Part shown: piece after piece, positions 3,266-15,889 of the stretch
Numbering within the stretch: position 1 is the stretch's first letter
How the letters are laid out: every line of letters begins with the position of its first letter
Virus record (IMG/VR): IMGVR_UViG_3300044676_003475
Location: 1 to 25,184 of that record
Length of the DNA stretch: 25,184 nt
From: a virus
Taxonomy: Duplodnaviria > Caudoviricetes
Strand: one strand, 5' to 3'
The notes under the pieces: model-generated
What the model was told of the DNA's origin: nothing
What the model saw: only the letters and a program-made list of their open reading frames with translations
The model's database searches: none
Position numbers and translations under genes: made by a program

Positions 3266-3700
3266 ATGAAAACTTTAGAAACATTCAAGACTGACCTCGG
3301 CACACTACGCACCGACCTAAACGCAACGACCTACAAAGTCGAAAAGGTGCAGGAACTCTTGAGCGACCTAGTTGAAAAACTCGACGGGATCTACGACCAG
3401 TCAGTATCCAACAAGGATCAGGCCGTCGACCTAGTACGCGCCGCCGACGATCTGAAACCCGCAAAGGATAATCGCGCTTTGTGTTCTTCTCATTACCGAA
3501 TGCTCGCTATCCTGAACGAGTATGGCGTAATGCACCGCGAACACATCGCGAGAATCTTAGGAGTGAAACCCGAAACGATTGGACAGTATGCCCACATCGT
3601 GAAACACCATGGACTCGCACACTTGAAAACGCGGCGGGGTGTTGTTAGTCTTCAATCACTGGCCGATGGGGTCAGCGATAATACAAACTTTAAGATCTAA
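3266..3700 (+). CDS. Coiled-coil plus (winged) helix-turn-helix DNA-binding protein
   Basis: N-terminal heptads; C-terminal HREHIARILGVKPETIGQYAHIVK HTH pattern; AAGGA RBS. Confidence 0.7.
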   Translation: MKTLETFKTDLGTLRTDLNATTYKVEKVQELLSDLVEKLDGIYDQSVSNKDQAVDLVRAADDLKPAKDNRALCSSHYRMLAILNEYGVMHREHIARILGVKPETIGQYAHIVKHHGLAHLKTRRGVVSLQSLADGVSDNTNFKI

Positions 3701-3943: not shown

Positions 3944-3969
3944 GCCCCGCTTCATGCGGGGTTTTTTTT
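3944..3969 (+). terminator. Intrinsic terminator of early cluster
   Basis: GCCCCGC-TTCAT-GCGGGGT followed by T run. Confidence 0.9.
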
Positions 3970-4470
3970 GCCCGTCTTATAGTCACTTCCCGCCTTACCG
4001 CCGGTATGCCCAGAAAATACCGTAAGGTCTTACCGCCACTGGGGATTGTGTTTTTCGGGTGTGTCCATAGTTGCTATATATCACGCCCCAGACATTCGGG
4101 TTTTTCCAAAGGGACAGGGGAGGATGACCCAGTTGATTCAACTCTACGGGGTTGGCATCACAAGAAAACACAGACAGGGGGGCGCGTATGTGTGCGCGCG
4201 GAGTGAATCCCTACCGGTTTGGCCTATGGTGTGGCGCGTGGTGTGAATCTGTTGGGTTCACTGAGGGTGGTAGCAGGAGCCCCCAAAGAAAAGATAAATA
4301 AATCAATGGGTTGGGGGTGGCAAGGGACACGGGGGGGTGCCCCTGCTAGTGCTAGCAATCCCCCCATATTTTTTTGGGTTTTGGAAATGGTGTTTCACGC
4401 AATGTTTCACATGCCGGCTTACCATTGGTACCACCGTTGGGAAGCCAGCCGGCTTACCGTCGGGGGTTAC
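3970..4470. other. Non-coding repeat/hairpin-rich block; probable terminus/packaging or origin region
   Basis: No credible ORFs, G/C runs, CTTACC repeats and inverted repeats; lies between early terminator and terS. Confidence 0.5.
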
Positions 4471-4475
4471 GGGGC

Positions 4476-4512
4476 AAAAAAAAGCCCCGACAGCAGGGGA
4501 TACTGTCAGGGC
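4476..4512 (-). terminator. Intrinsic terminator on minus strand
   Basis: Minus strand GCCCTGACAGTA-TCCCC-TGCTGTCGGGGC-T8: 12-bp stem whose two G-U pairs only form on this strand. Confidence 0.85.
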
Positions 4513-4578
4513 GCGGGGAGGGTGGTAAGCGTGGAGTTAACCAGTCGGTAATCTATGGGTTTACCCCGGCGGGCTTAC
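4476..4578 (-). ncRNA. Putative ~100-nt small RNA
   Basis: Bounded by promoter 4613-4585 and terminator 4512-4476; contains no AUG/GUG start. Confidence 0.65.
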
Positions 4579-4584
4579 AATCCC

Positions 4585-4613
4585 ATTGTACAGTCCAGAT
4601 TTCCATCCGTCAA
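4585..4613 (-). promoter_or_regulatory. Sigma70 promoter driving the sRNA
   Basis: Minus strand TTGACG-17 bp-TACAAT. Confidence 0.75.
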
Positions 4614-4669
4614 TAGCTACGGGAAATATATTTTTTTTCTCTTATTTTCTAGTACTCTGAGTACGTCTA

Positions 4670-4699
4670 TTGACAAAATTCTAAACCGACCCCCATAAT
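4670..4699 (+). promoter_or_regulatory. Sigma70-like promoter of packaging/structural operon
   Basis: TTGACA-18 bp-CATAAT with upstream AT-rich tract 4624-4650; divergent from the sRNA promoter. Confidence 0.65.
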
Positions 4700-4815
4700 G
4701 AATCTGTACCGGGGCCGAAATGGCAGGGGAAATCAACTTTTATAGTCCATGTGAACCAAAGTTCCGAGACCACGGGCCCCACGTACACTTTTTATTACAT
4801 ATATATGGTAAAACC

Positions 4816-5226
4816 ATGAACCTCCTCCCCCAGCAACGGAAGAAACGTGACCTCTCCGACCAACAACAAGCTTTCCTTACCGCACTCTTCGAGAACGGAG
4901 GTAACTTCTCGAGGGCTTGCGAGGTGTCAGGTTACTCGCAAGGTTCCATCGGGCACCTTAAAGAGTCTCTTGCCGACGAAATTATCGAAGGAGCACGGAA
5001 TATTCTTGCAGGTGGTGCTCTTAAGGCCGCGAATAAGCTCGTCTCAACCATTGACGCGCCGGAAATCGAGCGTGGAGATAACGTACGGCTCCAAGCCGCT
5101 GAATCTCTCCTCAACCGAGTGGGTCTCGGGAAACAGGAGACTCACAATGTCAATGTCCAAGCTGTACATGGGGTGGTACTACTCCCCCCGAAGAAAGAGA
5201 TGGTTATAGAACATGGCGAAGGATAA
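4816..5226 (+). CDS. terS: Putative terminase small subunit
   Basis: LSDQQQAFL...GGNFSRACEVSGYS HTH-like N-terminus, RLQAAESLLNRVG, C-terminal VVLLPPK; upstream of terL; ATG 4816 preferred over 4720. Confidence 0.7.
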   Translation: MNLLPQQRKKRDLSDQQQAFLTALFENGGNFSRACEVSGYSQGSIGHLKESLADEIIEGARNILAGGALKAANKLVSTIDAPEIERGDNVRLQAAESLLNRVGLGKQETHNVNVQAVHGVVLLPPKKEMVIEHGEG

Positions 5227-5446
5227 ACCTTACACAAATCCCCCTCGCGATCCGAATTGGACAGGGGCTCCTCCACTGGGTAAACAACGTGATTACAACA
5301 AAGATGCTCGCACTCAGTACCAAGAAAACAGAGACAATGAAGATTCCGCTGTCAAAAAGACGCGGGGATCGAGTATGCCAACTTCTTCACGTATCAAAGA
5401 GTCTAAAGACAACATAGTCAGGACTCCTAGACGTATTATAACGTAG
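5213..5446 (+). CDS. Small basic hypothetical protein
   Basis: Fills gap between terS and terL. Confidence 0.65.
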   Translation: MAKDKPYTNPPRDPNWTGAPPLGKQRDYNKDARTQYQENRDNEDSAVKKTRGSSMPTSSRIKESKDNIVRTPRRIIT

Positions 5447-5447
5447 T

Positions 5448-7154
5448 ATGAGCGAAGAAACGGTTGAAGAACAGCCAAAACGAAAGCCGGGACGCCCAAA
5501 AAAGGACCCGAATGCACCCAAAAGCCGCTACCATCTCTCTACTGCGGAAAAAGCGCGTCGAGCGACTCAAACCTCGATAAGACGCTCTAAGAAAGAGGCG
5601 GAAAAGAAACGAGCCGCCGCTACAAAACAAGCATATCGTGCATCAGTACGAGAAAAAGCCGCCTCCAAGGTCGAAACAGCCCTAAAGGGCGAAAAGTCAC
5701 GGGTAATCGACCAAGGAGACCTGAATGAATTACCGAAAGCTGTTTCAGACCTCGTTGGTGAGTCTGAGATCGTATTCCAGCCTAATGGAGGACCTCAAGA
5801 AGAGTTTCTCAGTGCTCCAGAGCAGGATGTGTTATATGGCGGGGCGGCCGGCGGCGGAAAAAGCTTCGCTCTTCTTGCTGACCCTCTCCGCTATTGTCAC
5901 AACCCTAACCATCGGGGGCTTCTTCTCCGCCGTACTCTCGATGAATTGACTGAACTCATATCAAAGTCGAAACAACTGTATCCCAAAGCGTTTCCCGGTG
6001 CCACATTCCGTGAAAGTAAGTCGACGTGGGTCTTCCCCTCTGGAGCGACCATATGGTTCTCGTACCTCGACAAAGATAAAGATGTCACTCGATACCAAGG
6101 ACAGGCATTTAATTGGATAGCCATTGATGAAGTCACTCAGTATCCCACACCCTATGTATGGGAATACCTTCGGTCCCGTCTACGGAGTACCGACGAGGAG
6201 TTGTCCCAAAACTTATCAATGCGATGTACAGCTAACCCCGGCGGCGTTGGCGGCTGGTGGGTCAAAAAAATGTACATTGACCAAGGAGAACCCGGTAAGC
6301 CCTTCGTTCCATCCGATTTGGAATCGGGAAAGCCATACGTATACCCGGATGGACATGAAAAGGCAGGCAAGCCGCTCTACTGGCGAAAATTCATCCCGGC
6401 CAGACTTACTGACAACCCGTACCTTATGCGGGACGGCCAGTACGAAGCCATGCTCCTCTCTCTCCCAGAAGTGGAGCGAAAGCGTTTACTTGATGGCGAC
6501 TGGGACGTTGCAGAAGGTTGTGCATTCCCAGAGTTTAACAAGCTCAAGCATTGCGTCGATCCTTACGACCTGCCAACCAACTGGCCCCGAATCAGAGCGG
6601 CCGACTACGGCTACGCAAGCCCTTCGTGCGTACTCTGGGGTGCAATCGATTGGGACAACAACATATGGGTCTATCGAGAACTTTACGTAAAACACTTTAC
6701 AGCAGAGCAACTTGCCGCTAAAATATTAGAAATGGAGGAGTACGATCCTACTCCTCACTATGCTGTATTAGATAAATCGTGCTGGAACCGTACAGGATAC
6801 GGGCCTTCCATCGCAGAAACGATGATACGGTCAGGCTGTCGTTGGACACCATCAGACAGTAATCGTATAGCGGGTAAGATGGAAATCCACAGCCGCCTCG
6901 GGGATAACCAGTTTACTGGCAAACCCACTGTCAAGTTTTTTAACACGTGTACAAACATAATAAAACAACTCGCTGGAATACCGCTATCTAAAACAAATTC
7001 AGAAGACGTCGACACAAAAGCTGAAGATCACGCCTATGACGCATTGCGTTATATGTTGATGACTCGCACATCTGGTTACGTCTCTATCCACAAAACTCTT
7101 AACGATATTAAGAATAGCACGTTCCAGCCACAGGATGCAACCTTCGGATACTAA
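5448..7154 (+). CDS. terL: Terminase large subunit
   Basis: Walker A YGGAAGGGKS, Walker B WIAIDE, coupling motif TANPGG, nuclease ADYG and DHAYDALRY. Confidence 0.95.
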   Translation: MSEETVEEQPKRKPGRPKKDPNAPKSRYHLSTAEKARRATQTSIRRSKKEAEKKRAAATKQAYRASVREKAASKVETALKGEKSRVIDQGDLNELPKAVSDLVGESEIVFQPNGGPQEEFLSAPEQDVLYGGAAGGGKSFALLADPLRYCHNPNHRGLLLRRTLDELTELISKSKQLYPKAFPGATFRESKSTWVFPSGATIWFSYLDKDKDVTRYQGQAFNWIAIDEVTQYPTPYVWEYLRSRLRSTDEELSQNLSMRCTANPGGVGGWWVKKMYIDQGEPGKPFVPSDLESGKPYVYPDGHEKAGKPLYWRKFIPARLTDNPYLMRDGQYEAMLLSLPEVERKRLLDGDWDVAEGCAFPEFNKLKHCVDPYDLPTNWPRIRAADYGYASPSCVLWGAIDWDNNIWVYRELYVKHFTAEQLAAKILEMEEYDPTPHYAVLDKSCWNRTGYGPSIAETMIRSGCRWTPSDSNRIAGKMEIHSRLGDNQFTGKPTVKFFNTCTNIIKQLAGIPLSKTNSEDVDTKAEDHAYDALRYMLMTRTSGYVSIHKTLNDIKNSTFQPQDATFGY

Positions 7155-9047
7155 ATGGCAGAATCAAAAGTCAAAATGAATGCTCCGCTACCGGATGCCG
7201 AAGTTCGTGCGAAACTAGCGGATAAGACCCTCACTTTCCGCGAAGCCCTAGAGTATTCTCACGCAAATGCGACAACACAAAACGCGAAGGACTTAATCAA
7301 AAACATCTACAATACAGGTCTCGGTCAAATGGGTATTGACCCAGATCAACCGTGGTCTGATTTTCAAAAGCGTTCTGTCTTCGAGAAGATGCATCAAAGT
7401 GACGCACACCCCGAAGTCAAAGCAGATCGCTACACTCATTTCCAAGCAGTCGAAAAAGTTTTAACTGTCTCGCCTTACGCAGAAGTTGAAGATCAGATGT
7501 ACCCGCTCAAAGTCATGACGAGTGGTGAGTCTAAGAAAGTTACAGGCAAAGGTCAAGCACGTTATAAGTCGCAGATGCGCGGCGTGGTATCCAACAAAGA
7601 GTGGAATAAGATTTACGAGGATGCGTTCCGTGACAAAGACGGGAAGCTCCTCATCACAAATGCAGAGCACCGTAATGCACTTATGTTCCATAAGATTACG
7701 GGTGGTCGTCCAGAGAACTTGTTTAGTAAGGGCGGAAACTTTCCTTTAACTGCCGACGATTTTATCTACGAGCTTGACGTTGATACTGGCGAAGAAGTTA
7801 TTGTGATGACTGCAAACCGTAACGTCAATAAAGGACGTGCGGCGATTCAGTTTTCCGGAGAAGACAAGGCTTGGGTTGAGAGCTTAATCAAAGAAGCAGA
7901 GACTCGTCCAAACCGTAATATCTTCCAGATCACTAATACCGAATACTCAAAAGTTTTTAAAGAGCACATCACCCCACAGATCGAAAAACGTCCTAAGGTG
8001 ATGGCTAAAGTACCAATCTTGCAAGGGAAGCCAATGGTTACCCCTGCTGTTGTGCGGCACGTAACTAACAAGATCATGACAGATGAGTTGCGTGTTCCTT
8101 TGGATTACACCAACGGCTTTATGGGACATGCCCCGCAGGATATCGGCCGTGGTTCGTATCTCGGTGAAGTGCCACCAAATATCTTGGGTGAAGTCAAGGA
8201 CGCTTTTATCGAAGACTCTGCCTACCAAGGCGGACACGCGACTACCCGTAGTTTCTGGTCAAAGTTTGGTATTGAAATCCCTGCGACTCTTGTCGATGAC
8301 GAAGGTGCTGAGTACGAAGTTAAGACAACTCCGGTACAAGGACGCTATCGCTGGGGTGAGACTGCGCGGGGCGACCAAAAGCCACGGGCAGAATTAACTG
8401 CCGCACAACGCAAAGCGATTGATGATCAGGCAAAAGCTGATAGTGCGATTGCAGAAGCGAGTGTTGAGAGTGCAAAGAATACTGGTGCTCAAGCTCGTCT
8501 TGAACGTCTCAATGCTGAAATTAAAGAAATGGAGACGGTCAACGATCCTGCGTATCTTGAGACGTATAAGAAGTACCAAGAAACTCTCCAGAAAAAAGCT
8601 GAGATTGAGAAGCAGGTAGCTGATGAAATCGCCGCTGAAAAGAAAGCCGCGAAGGCTCTGACTCCGGAAAGAGAGAAAGACATCGCAAAAAGCTTCTTTG
8701 ATATGTTCACCTCACCAACGGGCAAAAAGATTATTGGGGGTGCAGTAACTGTAGGCGGCACAACCCTACTCGGTGCTTCTCTCGTTCCCCGTATCGCAGA
8801 AGCGCAAGCAAAGATTGAAGCGGGCGAACCTGTAATCCCTTCTGTTACAGAGGAAGCAGGACAGTTCCTTCTCGAAGAAGGCCCCGTGGGTGCCATACAA
8901 GCGGGTCTCGAAATAGGACAAGAAGCAGTAGGTGCGGCACTCGAGCCTGCTCTCGAAGAATATGAAGTACAAGCCGAAGAGGCTGGACTAGACGAAGACA
9001 CTGAATCGCAGGCATTCCGCCTGTTCGGTGAACAACCATTCCAATAA
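7155..9047 (+). CDS. Tyrosine recombinase-like domain protein with C-terminal coiled coil and hydrophobic segment
   Basis: TGGR185PENL, NK226GR, A298xxR301H, MGH325, SY335 in tyrosine-recombinase order and spacing. Confidence 0.7.
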   Translation: MAESKVKMNAPLPDAEVRAKLADKTLTFREALEYSHANATTQNAKDLIKNIYNTGLGQMGIDPDQPWSDFQKRSVFEKMHQSDAHPEVKADRYTHFQAVEKVLTVSPYAEVEDQMYPLKVMTSGESKKVTGKGQARYKSQMRGVVSNKEWNKIYEDAFRDKDGKLLITNAEHRNALMFHKITGGRPENLFSKGGNFPLTADDFIYELDVDTGEEVIVMTANRNVNKGRAAIQFSGEDKAWVESLIKEAETRPNRNIFQITNTEYSKVFKEHITPQIEKRPKVMAKVPILQGKPMVTPAVVRHVTNKIMTDELRVPLDYTNGFMGHAPQDIGRGSYLGEVPPNILGEVKDAFIEDSAYQGGHATTRSFWSKFGIEIPATLVDDEGAEYEVKTTPVQGRYRWGETARGDQKPRAELTAAQRKAIDDQAKADSAIAEASVESAKNTGAQARLERLNAEIKEMETVNDPAYLETYKKYQETLQKKAEIEKQVADEIAAEKKAAKALTPEREKDIAKSFFDMFTSPTGKKIIGGAVTVGGTTLLGASLVPRIAEAQAKIEAGEPVIPSVTEEAGQFLLEEGPVGAIQAGLEIGQEAVGAALEPALEEYEVQAEEAGLDEDTESQAFRLFGEQPFQ

Positions 9048-9057
9048 GGAGAATACA

Positions 9058-9261
9058 ATGAAGTATCAAGCATCCGACATCATGACGGCTGACAAGAAGG
9101 GCATCGACTACAACTGCGGCGAAAACAACCTCGTTCGTGAATCAATGGATTTTGACACAGTAGCAAAGACAGACTCTCTGATCGAAGCTATGCCTAAGAC
9201 AAACAAAGAGTCATTGGATCAGTCGATCCTGACTTCCGACAAACAGTCTGCATTATCCTAA
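9058..9261 (+). CDS. Small hypothetical protein
   Basis: ATG 9058 after AAGGAG. Confidence 0.75.
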   Translation: MKYQASDIMTADKKGIDYNCGENNLVRESMDFDTVAKTDSLIEAMPKTNKESLDQSILTSDKQSALS

Positions 9262-11368: not shown

Positions 11369-11399
11369 TCATAAAAAGGTCGTAGAATCAAATGGCTAG
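11172..11399 (+). CDS. Small helical protein overlapping portal 3' end
   Basis: AAGGA RBS; W..L..YL...QLQGK..LL..LLNLK pattern resembles small post-portal genes; couples to 11392 start. Confidence 0.7.
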   Translation: MLSKEQAQKVGPLVNHPQAWGALTSYLADLHQLTLRGLVTAQSEREMFQLQGKMVLLDSLLNLKDNHKKVVESNG

Positions 11400-13806
11400 A
11401 TACGGCGGTGGGTATACTGTTTATGACGCGATTGCTCGTTCGAGAGCTCGCGCACAGTTTCGGTCTTATACTCCTCAACCTACTCCGGCAACAACACCGG
11501 GAGGTATTTTTGGAACTGACGGTACTCCAAAAACATCCACGTCTACCGTAAAAGATAGCACGAGAATCTCAGGAGGTTTACCTACGGGGGGCTTCGCCGC
11601 GAGCGCAGGGCAGTACAAGTCTCCGTTCATGGACCCTAACATGACCTTCGAGATGACACCCTCGGGTGTTGTTGGAACTCCTATCACAGAAGCTACGTCT
11701 AAGACTGGTTCTGGCTATATGACTGGTCCAGAAGCCGCTGGAAAAGCGGTGATGGGGACCTATGGTGCTTTTGATGTAACTACAAAAGCAGGAAAGGCGA
11801 TGCAGTCCGTTTTGGCGGCGTCTGACCCCACTCCCTTTGGATTGACAGGACTTGTTGCAGGAGAATTACGGACTGATCCGTATGGTCGTAGCGTCGCTCG
11901 TCCCGGCGGTATGCTCGGTGCAGTTACAGACATGGTTGTCGAAAAACAGCACGAAGTTGCATCTAAGATTTTTGCGGGAGAGCCGGGGTATCACCAGTTT
12001 TACTCGGGGGGACAGCTTGTCTCTCTTGTTCCCCAGAACAATCCCTTAACAGGAAACCAGATTGGGTACGCAGTCCTCGGTGCAACAGGCATTGATGCCA
12101 AAACCGCAACTGCACAATACGCCGCGATGTTTGGTTACGACCCACGCAGTGTTGATTTATCGAAGCGTCCCGGACAGAAAGGCTTTGGTCTCGAACTCCA
12201 AGGATTTGTGCAGGGTTCTGGCGGCGTAGCGCAGGACGGGACATTCATCGGCGCGAGTGGTGGGCAGAAACAACTCGCAGGTAAAGACCTAGAGCGTCAC
12301 CTCGGACTTGTTGCAGATATTTACGGTGTACAGGAAGCAGGCAAAACCCTACAGGGAATGAACGTGAGGGAGGACGTTAAGTCGACACTCATGGGAGCTC
12401 TCGAGTTGGGTGAAGTTACTGCGGAAGCGATTGTTGATAAGGATGGTAATACAGTAGGTTATACCACAGGTGTGGGCAACGTCGTGCGCTCTGGGGATGA
12501 TTCTATCGTCACAACCAAAGACGGTCTCGTAACTTCAGGTCAGGGCGTCATGTCTCCGAACGTCTACAACTACCTCCGCCAAGAAGCAGAGTTTGATAGC
12601 CAAGAACGCGCAGGGGGAGCTTTAGACGCCCCAACTCCGGGAATACAACGTGTTGACACAGGCGGCGGTGACGGGGGTAGGGACCATACCACAGTTTCCG
12701 GACGTGGCACTACGAACTTTAACCAATCTGACAGAAGCGAAGCATCCTCACGAGGAGAAACATTCTTCGCAGAGGGCGGCCCTGTCGTACCTACCCCAGA
12801 AGCCGCACAAGGTGAAGCCCCTGTTGTTGCCGACGCAGGATTTGTTGGCACAGAGCCTGAGAATGTTCCCGTGGGTGAAACTGTTGCGGACGACGTCCCG
12901 ATGGACGTTCCCGAAGGTACTTTCGTACTGAATGCGGCCGCTGTTGAATTCATGGGATCTGCCGACGTTAAGAAGATGATTCTCCAAGCGATGCAAGAAG
13001 CAGAGAAGCAAGGTATTGACATATCGCAGAGAAGTTCTAAAATACCTAAGGAAGAGCTTGTATCTTTAGTAGTTTCTAAAGGTGAAGTGATTATCCCTCC
13101 TGAACTCGCCCAAATCATCGGCTACGACAGACTCAATAAGATCAACAATCGCGGCAAAGCAGAAGTTGAAAAACGTCAAGCAGAGAATGGGGAACAGCCA
13201 GAAGGTGAGCGTGTTGCGGCCGCAGAGGGTGCAGATACACGTGGGATGATTGATCTCGGAGATGTCGTTGACTACCGAGACTTCAAGAACCCACAGACTA
13301 GCTGGATGAATATGCTCGAGGTTACTGGTGCAGGTGCTACAGGTAATCTTGAAGCAATGGAAAAAGCATTTTCGTATTCCCGTAAGTGGAATGCAAAAAC
13401 AAAGTCTGGTGATAAGTACGAGGACAGTTTCCGTCACACCCTAGTTGGTGGATTGTACGGTGACGTCGGAGGTTTTTACGCAGACGCAAAAGAGAACTTT
13501 CACAAGTACGTAGAAGCTTATCCTAAGATTGCGTACGAAAAAGCGAAGGGCATGCTCGGTGGTGAAACGAACCAAGAGCAGATAGGTATCGCCCGCAGTA
13601 TTATCGCAGAGTCAGACGTCGATCTCAACAATAATGCATTCGGCAGAGAACTCCGCAAACAAATCCCAGATGAAGAAAAATACGTTCGTACTGTAGAGCG
13701 TATGATGAATATTGCTGTAACGGAGGGAATCGATAAGGTTCCTTCGATAACAACAGAAGATGGTGAACAGATACGTCTCCAACTGAGCACCGTCCCAGCA
13801 GAATAA
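11392..13806 (+). CDS. Putative internal virion/ejection protein with C-terminal DUF6973-like domain
   Basis: Gly/Ala/Thr-rich N-half; FAEGG, ADDVP..EGTFV and SKGEVI motifs; C-terminal DSFRH...DLNNNAFGR. Confidence 0.6.
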   Translation: MARYGGGYTVYDAIARSRARAQFRSYTPQPTPATTPGGIFGTDGTPKTSTSTVKDSTRISGGLPTGGFAASAGQYKSPFMDPNMTFEMTPSGVVGTPITEATSKTGSGYMTGPEAAGKAVMGTYGAFDVTTKAGKAMQSVLAASDPTPFGLTGLVAGELRTDPYGRSVARPGGMLGAVTDMVVEKQHEVASKIFAGEPGYHQFYSGGQLVSLVPQNNPLTGNQIGYAVLGATGIDAKTATAQYAAMFGYDPRSVDLSKRPGQKGFGLELQGFVQGSGGVAQDGTFIGASGGQKQLAGKDLERHLGLVADIYGVQEAGKTLQGMNVREDVKSTLMGALELGEVTAEAIVDKDGNTVGYTTGVGNVVRSGDDSIVTTKDGLVTSGQGVMSPNVYNYLRQEAEFDSQERAGGALDAPTPGIQRVDTGGGDGGRDHTTVSGRGTTNFNQSDRSEASSRGETFFAEGGPVVPTPEAAQGEAPVVADAGFVGTEPENVPVGETVADDVPMDVPEGTFVLNAAAVEFMGSADVKKMILQAMQEAEKQGIDISQRSSKIPKEELVSLVVSKGEVIIPPELAQIIGYDRLNKINNRGKAEVEKRQAENGEQPEGERVAAAEGADTRGMIDLGDVVDYRDFKNPQTSWMNMLEVTGAGATGNLEAMEKAFSYSRKWNAKTKSGDKYEDSFRHTLVGGLYGDVGGFYADAKENFHKYVEAYPKIAYEKAKGMLGGETNQEQIGIARSIIAESDVDLNNNAFGRELRKQIPDEEKYVRTVERMMNIAVTEGIDKVPSITTEDGEQIRLQLSTVPAE

Positions 13807-15859: not shown

Positions 15860-15889
15860 CCGATTAAGCCCGCCGGGGGTATACACACT

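Follow-up and report, generated by a model that had tools for sequence, protein, structure and literature searches.

The product of gene X, which directly follows the terminase large subunit gene (terL) in a podophage genome, is an Int/Xer-type tyrosine recombinase in which the catalytic Arg, Arg and Tyr are conserved. Judged by its sequence, it is a real and catalytically conserved enzyme that has a new architecture and occupies a new genomic place. The main feature that was absent from the first-pass annotation of this DNA is allele swapping, which affects the enzyme part and, separately, the C-terminal tail. In the following, the window denotes the whole stretch of viral DNA that was analysed (25,184 nt).

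Gene X and the phage that carries it

The window comes from the genome of a podophage; its terL and its portal, capsid and tail genes were recognized with Pfam and PHROGs. The nearest cultured matches are HMO-2011-type and HTVC103P-type phages (47-59% identity); the TerL of phiM6 is 53% identical to that of the window, and TerS shows 32-40% identity to the annotated TerS of cultured relatives. The family A DNA polymerase with two CXXCXGXG motifs (HMO-2011-type), whose gene lies outside the window, was found in four of five related genomes and is closest to that of HTVC033P. Related portal, capsid and TerL proteins, together with the polymerase motifs in the relatives, place the phage in the HMO-2011-type group. 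Around 1,200 IMG/VR stretches match the TerL patterns of the clade, and a search for a cultured member of the gene X clade found none. The genes around gene X are:

4816..5226, + strand: terminase small subunit gene (terS), its start at 4816 being placed from the alignment of relatives
5448..7154, + strand: terL (Pfam, PHROGs), the stop codon of which abuts the ATG of gene X
7155..9047, + strand: gene X, encoding a 630-aa tyrosine recombinase with a long C-terminal extension (profile, model, alignment)
9058..9261, + strand: conserved 67-aa ORF between gene X and the portal gene, with an RBS that overlaps the gene X stop codon
9281..11368, + strand: portal protein gene (Pfam, PHROGs)

As the first-pass annotation had noted, the ATG of gene X directly adjoins the terL stop codon TAA (7152-7154) without any gap. 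The arrangement terL-X-portal, the conservation of which had been proposed as a check, proved to be general: an ORF of >120 aa starts <=20 nt from the end of terL in 85/85 viral loci with >=2 kb downstream (in one of these, L046, gene X looks split into frames of 146 and 571 aa), and in 49/49 metagenome loci with >=3 kb of room terL is followed by an ORF of >=500 aa and then by the portal gene, the viral and metagenome sets overlapping in that they share contigs. The start of gene X lies at -1 to +5 nt relative to the terL stop in 105/105 cases, and with stop and start abutting or overlapping in this way the two genes are probably co-translated. The 67-aa ORF had a tblastn match in 82 loci, a number equal to that of the portal. 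Five cultured relatives (HMO-2011-type) have the same head genes and no gene X beside terL, and the family profile gave no match in the regions fetched from them (partial genomes). In the five related genomes, of which one has a completeness rating of 100% and another of 96%, gene X was the sole tyrosine-recombinase match of the family profile. With PF00589, G001 and G002 each had a single match, gene X in both cases, and G003-G005 had none; since Pfam thus missed gene X itself in three genomes, a divergent second integrase may exist.

Some other genes of the window deserve mention. A 77-aa ORF between terS and terL (5213-5446) was found by tblastn in only two loci; the other assembled relatives skip about 245 nt at this gap, and the ORF looks like a small insertion. 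The 804-aa protein encoded after the portal gene (11392-13806) varies in length from 419 to 1,200 aa among relatives and frequently contains an internal [FYM]xxGGx[VI] motif, a similar GGF motif being found at the end of some gene X tails. A 144-aa protein with a C-terminal helix-turn-helix (3266-3700; Pfam HTH_28, E 2.5e-4), encoded near the end of the early-type genes, may be a regulator.

Gene X encodes a tyrosine recombinase

Searched as a single sequence, the gene X protein had no match in Pfam, PHROGs or the PDB sequences, and alone it recovered three homologues. With TerL as bait we collected 80 viral loci, 74 of which have a long ORF right after terL (the remaining six are cut by contig ends), and the ORFs at this position form one family. 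A profile of 39 homologues matched the archaeal XerC-like protein 4a8e (E 5e-12), followed by Tn1549 Int, XerH, XerD and lambda Int, with the columns of the Arg, the Lys, the HxxR Arg, the His and the Tyr in register and that of the HxxR His opposite Ser; PF00589 was matched by 14 of the 39 members at E<=0.1. Foldseek with the AlphaFold model (mean pLDDT 71) returned lambda Int first (E 8e-4, a single match reaching E<=0.001), then XerA and XerH. The recombinase fold that had been claimed on the basis of residue spacing is thereby borne out by profile and model alike. The family profile spans the core-binding and catalytic domains of lambda Int, and no arm-binding domain is found ahead of the predicted core-binding domain. 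The following parts and residues can be distinguished:

7155..7530, + strand: N-terminal helical domain (aa 1-125), predicted core-binding domain (model helices; profile coverage)
7650..8189, + strand: catalytic domain (aa 166-345)
7707-7709, + strand: R185
7830-7832, + strand: K226
8046-8048, + strand: A298, at the position of the HxxR His
8055-8057, + strand: R301
8127-8129, + strand: H325
8157-8159, + strand: Y335
8400..8705, + strand: predicted long helices, coiled-coil-like (aa 416-517; AlphaFold model)
8730..9047, + strand: swappable tail (aa 526-630), a Gly/Ala-rich, moderately hydrophobic stretch followed by acidic helices

All six residues are where the first-pass annotation had put them. 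A profile search of 1.84 billion representatives yielded 150 proteins at E<=1e-30, a number that rises to 511 at E<=1e-10. By alignment to the profile, which was built on the same family, R185 is kept in 150, R301 in 149 and Y335 in 148 of the 150, and the three residues are present in 94/94 locus proteins. The presumed conservation of R-K-R-H-Y therefore stands for both arginines and the tyrosine and is incomplete for the other two: the column of K226, in a poorly aligned loop, has K in 100, R in 10 and a gap in 24 of the 150, and position 325 is His in 82, Arg in 64 and Gln in 3. K226 is the least certain of the catalytic assignments. The C-terminal extension is kept across the family as well, with >=150 aa after the Tyr in 144/150 representatives. 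An enzyme of this kind would act through 3'-phosphotyrosine chemistry.

The HxxR His is absent in 94/94 locus proteins. Its replacement by Ala298 in the window had been read as a pointer to protelomerases or type IB topoisomerases, but this loss is not diagnostic of either, because the integrase of phage CRP-3, which does integrate, is also without this His and has an Arg in its place; moreover, the protelomerase TelA (rank 46) and TopoI (rank 50) come far below the Int/Xer enzymes in the fold search, last among the matches listed. That gene X encodes a protelomerase, or a DNA-binding regulator built on the recombinase fold, is very improbable. The product equals the N15-type protelomerases in length, yet TelA is only 46th by fold, none of the 39 family members has a telomere-resolvase Pfam match, and no long palindrome was found near gene X or upstream of terS. 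For a regulator, MrpR shows that the recombinase fold can act as a repressor (PMC10516654), but MrpR has lost both catalytic arginines, which the gene X family keeps.

Replacement of alleles and separate exchange of tails

The enzyme parts of 99 gene X proteins form 47 clusters at 50% identity. In 31 of 68 pairs of loci with TerL >=90% and portal N-terminus >=85% identical, the gene X proteins are <30% identical. Free variation of gene X is seen beside a TerL that stays 95-100% identical. In a quick tree, 46 alleles fall into six deep lineages, five of which hold members of both TerL subgroups; the subgroup label requires 11 changes on this tree, of which at least nine are forced, the 'far' subgroup being an identity class and not a clade. 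Of 44 allele pairs from within lineages, nine are saturated and the other 35 have a dN/dS of 0.02-0.38; the alleles are under purifying selection. In four estuary and seawater assemblies the contig depth is high over terL and drops at the start of gene X, as expected if relatives carry other alleles, the depth being a sum over many organisms.

The last ~100 residues are exchanged separately: among 68 full proteins, 18 pairs share the tail and not the enzyme, and 12 pairs show the reverse. The locus L001 has an enzyme part 99% identical to that of the window and switches to another tail near 8733, the helices of aa 416-517 moving together with the enzyme allele in this pair, and the tail type of the window is also found on enzymes that are 22-25% identical to the window's. 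Crossovers into the tail lie at scattered positions in other pairs, which fits ordinary recombination and not one att site. As a separate observation, some alleles (P0009, P0011, P0025, P0053, P0057, P0059, P0062, P0069, P0096 and P0114) carry an N-terminal extension of 110-170 aa; similar extensions recur on several alleles and possibly represent a third swappable module.

Exchange of unrelated integrase types at one locus is the usual pattern of integration cassettes. Among the readings that we considered, the best account of the swapping is indeed that gene X is the integrase of a temperate clade, its alleles being integration cassettes with different host targets and its tail being regulatory. 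The scatter of the crossovers, which do not share one att core, speaks against this, and we consider it unlikely on the whole. Slightly less likely still is that the product, packaged or made early, is an effector in conflicts that nicks or covalently traps the DNA of the host or of a co-infecting phage, its alleles being kept diverse by an arms race or by recognition of self and non-self. The many clusters, the pairs of near-identical phages with unrelated gene X, the deep lineages that span both TerL subgroups and the lack of a cognate site found on the phage would all agree with such a role. On the other hand, gene X was in every case replaced and in none lost among the loci examined, a pattern closer to that of a core function than to that of an accessory weapon, and dN/dS is well below 1 within lineages.

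Target sites, integration and expression

We found no att, lox or telRL site for gene X. Lox-like inverted repeats near gene X numbered 7 against 4.6 expected (42 loci), which is not beyond chance; a protected run of >8 codons inside gene X was absent in 15 of 16 synonymous-saturated pairs; and none of 46 gene X genes has a tRNA T-loop motif, nor was a tRNA fragment found. With none of these searches yielding a cognate site, the sequence specificity of the enzyme may be loose.

These results also bear on gene X as an integrase. A weak similarity of the CRP-3 integrase to the family profile (hhalign probability 25%, E 8e-4), the shared lack of the HxxR His, the integration of CRP-3 at tRNA-Met (PMC6918029) and the position of gene X as sole tyrosine-recombinase match in the related genomes argue in favour. 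Against it, gene X leaves no room for an attP, being flush with terL on one side and overlapped at its stop by the next RBS on the other; the T-loop motif and the arm-binding domain are lacking; none of the 49 metagenome loci has a split terL/X/portal locus; and two scans of 185,579 species genomes found no TerL of the clade. This last blank carries little weight, given how seldom such hosts harbour prophages (PMC6918029). We note that one clade genome (L225, VMHT01062898.1) lies on a contig of 105,890 bp, about twice the genome size, of which 21.7 kb was read and was all phage-like; either a prophage or an assembly that was doubled could account for its length.

Two features upstream of terS concern expression and packaging:

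3950..4815, no strand: non-coding region with conserved blocks, candidate pac region (analogy with phiM6)
4670..4699, + strand: sigma-70-type promoter-like site TTGACA-N18-CATAAT, facing terS-terL-X

The sigma-70-type pattern toward terS recurs in 36 of 60 upstream regions as against 1 of 214 control stretches. Gene X had been taken to be expressed late; with a conserved, near-consensus promoter of this type facing terS-terL-X, its timing is left open, and an integrase could be expressed early from this site. For phiM6, headful packaging has been predicted from a pac 600 bp before terS (PMC6256558), and the same distance before the terS of the window falls in the non-coding region 3950-4815. 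This region lies 2.4-3.2 kb before gene X, and none of its conserved blocks was seen to track the gene X allele.

The same region holds several further elements. A divergent sigma-70-type promoter, TTGACG-N17-TACAAT (4470-4613, - strand), the pattern of which is present in 27 of 60 loci, points to a 12-bp hairpin with a T run ~100 nt away (fold z-score -3.7, no Rfam match), which makes a candidate small RNA at 4470-4613 (-). Two promoter-like sites are each followed, shortly after the -10 box, by an identical 14-mer, at 4564-4577 (-) and 15865-15878 (+) (2 copies against 0.08 expected); the 14-mer is a possible operator or leader element. At 4390-4410 there are two copies of TGTTTCAC, reversed in L102 and L103 and present as an inverted repeat in L108; the element resembles a parS half-site and could be a site for TerS or a host factor.

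The tail and a candidate signal for loading into the head

The first-pass annotation had described the tail as coiled-coil, then Gly-rich and hydrophobic, then acidic, and had likened it to ejection proteins. The description agrees with the helices predicted at aa 416-517, a Kyte-Doolittle mean of 1.67 over the Gly-rich stretch (aa 526-544) and a net charge of -16 over the last 70 aa. In 63 of 71 tails a hydrophobic peak rich in Gly and Ala is found 60-160 aa before the C-terminus, but only 3 of the 71 hydrophobic stretches reach 1.6. As for the likeness, no homology of the tail to known ejection proteins was found, the tail profile had no match to other proteins in five related genomes or five cultured-phage regions, and gene X is located outside the operon that encodes internal virion proteins (IVPs), with no homology to IVP-B, -C or -D; indirect support for packaging comes from relatives, in the form of a shared C-terminal motif.

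At the end of the structural operon, the related genomes have a cluster of genes for proteins of ~450, 160, 180, 950 and 1,590 aa. This agrees with the layout of podovirus IVPs, which comprise a small protein and two of very large size (PMC4819975, PMC8954989) and bring passenger enzymes into the cytoplasm (PMC4819975). The ~180-aa protein encoded ahead of two very large structural genes fits the IVP-B slot by position and size only, and a PHROGs search with the small protein at this position gave no match. The motif [GSN]F[LIMV], chosen after the sequences were seen, occurs in the last 12 aa of 27/71 gene X tails and of 44/59 distinct ends of the ~180-aa protein, as against 9/483 other ORFs. 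Counted by family, the motif ends 21 of 62 gene X tail families (shuffle mean 0.76), 2 of 5 families of the protein at the IVP-B position (0.04) and 3 of 192 families of other ORFs (3.4), and by eye about 7 of 33 post-portal proteins have the same ending. This link between gene X tails and the small protein at the IVP-B position is new here. In the subclade of the window (TerL >80% identical to that of the window) the motif is found in 0/30 tails and 0/12 families, the window protein being without it, and in L208, a member of this subclade, the 180-aa protein carries it further from its end. Because of this absence, the packaging signal is a lead from the relatives and not a property of the window protein.

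A possible role in the incoming phage

The reading that we tentatively favour is that the gene X product is a packaged cargo that cuts and rejoins incoming phage DNA, most likely circularizing its redundant ends. The protein would be made together with TerL, enter the phage head by means of its tail and reach the cell along with the genome, where it would join the redundant ends into a circle (most likely) or relax the DNA. If packaging is headful from a pac just upstream of terS, as by analogy with phiM6, gene X and its neighbourhood would lie inside the terminally redundant DNA. Head loading is suggested by the motif in common with the ejection-cluster protein, in the relatives only, and the steps beyond fold, residues and synteny are what such a mechanism would entail. 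Self-circularization alone does not by itself explain the old, swapped alleles of gene X. A wider version, in which the product is an injected head-cargo recombinase whose swappable C-terminal tag is shared with an ejection protein, and in which coexisting ancient alleles close or protect their own genome and act on rival or host DNA, is more doubtful.

The position of gene X and its translational coupling to terL would also fit a helper that is not injected but remains at the terminase or procapsid and, during packaging, resolves or relaxes the replicated DNA. The tyrosine recombinase VLF-1 of baculoviruses serves genome packaging (PMC11654684, PMC3649998), and a nudivirus Vlf-1 was found at rank 16 (E 0.012) in the viral fold search, among many integrases. 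Resolution of concatemers for the terminase, which had been among the earlier proposals, is weakened by the T7-type endonuclease I (E 5e-40) that the complete relative G002 already encodes. Gene X moreover varies freely beside a nearly constant TerL, unlike a tight partner, and the cultured relatives package their DNA without it; we therefore give such a helper a low probability and prefer the injected cargo, itself a tentative proposal.

Comparison with known systems and implications

With the Int/Xer/Cre enzymes (lambda Int 1z1b, XerC-like 4a8e, XerH 5jk0, Tn1549 Int) gene X shares the core-binding and catalytic fold and the Arg, Lys, Arg, His and Tyr in register; it differs from them in the missing HxxR His, in the Arg that often takes the place of the second His, in the ~280 aa after the Tyr, in the location in a head operon and in that no target site was found. 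P1 Cre acts at loxP to circularize headful DNA and is a simple recombinase encoded near the pac of a headful packager; it has a 34-bp palindromic site beside its own gene and no tail, whereas gene X has a tail and no palindromic site was found beside it. From the same phage group comes CRP-3 gp02, an HMO-2011-type integrase that shares the RPxD and xDLRR motifs with gene X and likewise lacks the HxxR His. The similarity is weak, however, and gp02 has 357 aa, ends soon after the Tyr, is encoded before the replication module and integrates at tRNA-Met.

The podovirus IVP passenger enzymes N4 vRNAP and H66 gp60 combine an enzyme with a helical extension, as gene X does, and its delivery into the cytoplasm would resemble theirs (PMC4819975); in contrast to them, gene X is not encoded in the IVP operon, and the only sequence likeness is a short terminal motif that some of its family carry. 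VLF-1 of baculoviruses and nudiviruses is a tyrosine recombinase and a structural component of the virion (PMC11654684, PMC3649998), and according to PMC11654684 no such role was known outside baculo-like viruses. VLF-1 is a conserved core gene of insect viruses, whereas gene X is a hypervariable gene of a tailed phage, its product being a putative virion component. For the neighbouring, uncultured HMO-2011 subgroups IV-X, PMC9038755 reports no lysogeny-related genes; 10.1101/2019.12.14.876532, PMC12629253 and PMC11288001 concern other groups. At the level of titles and the openings of abstracts, with most subscription papers outside the search, we found no description of the gene X family.

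The clade with gene X is common in marine viromes. Should gene X be an integrase, it would be a mistake to call this clade lytic. If its product is packaged and injected, it would be the tailed-phage counterpart of the virion tyrosine recombinases of baculo-like viruses. With at least 150 clusters, the family is a source of divergent recombinases whose active site is unusual, without the HxxR His and with Arg for the second His in 64/150, and of a candidate tag for loading into capsids.
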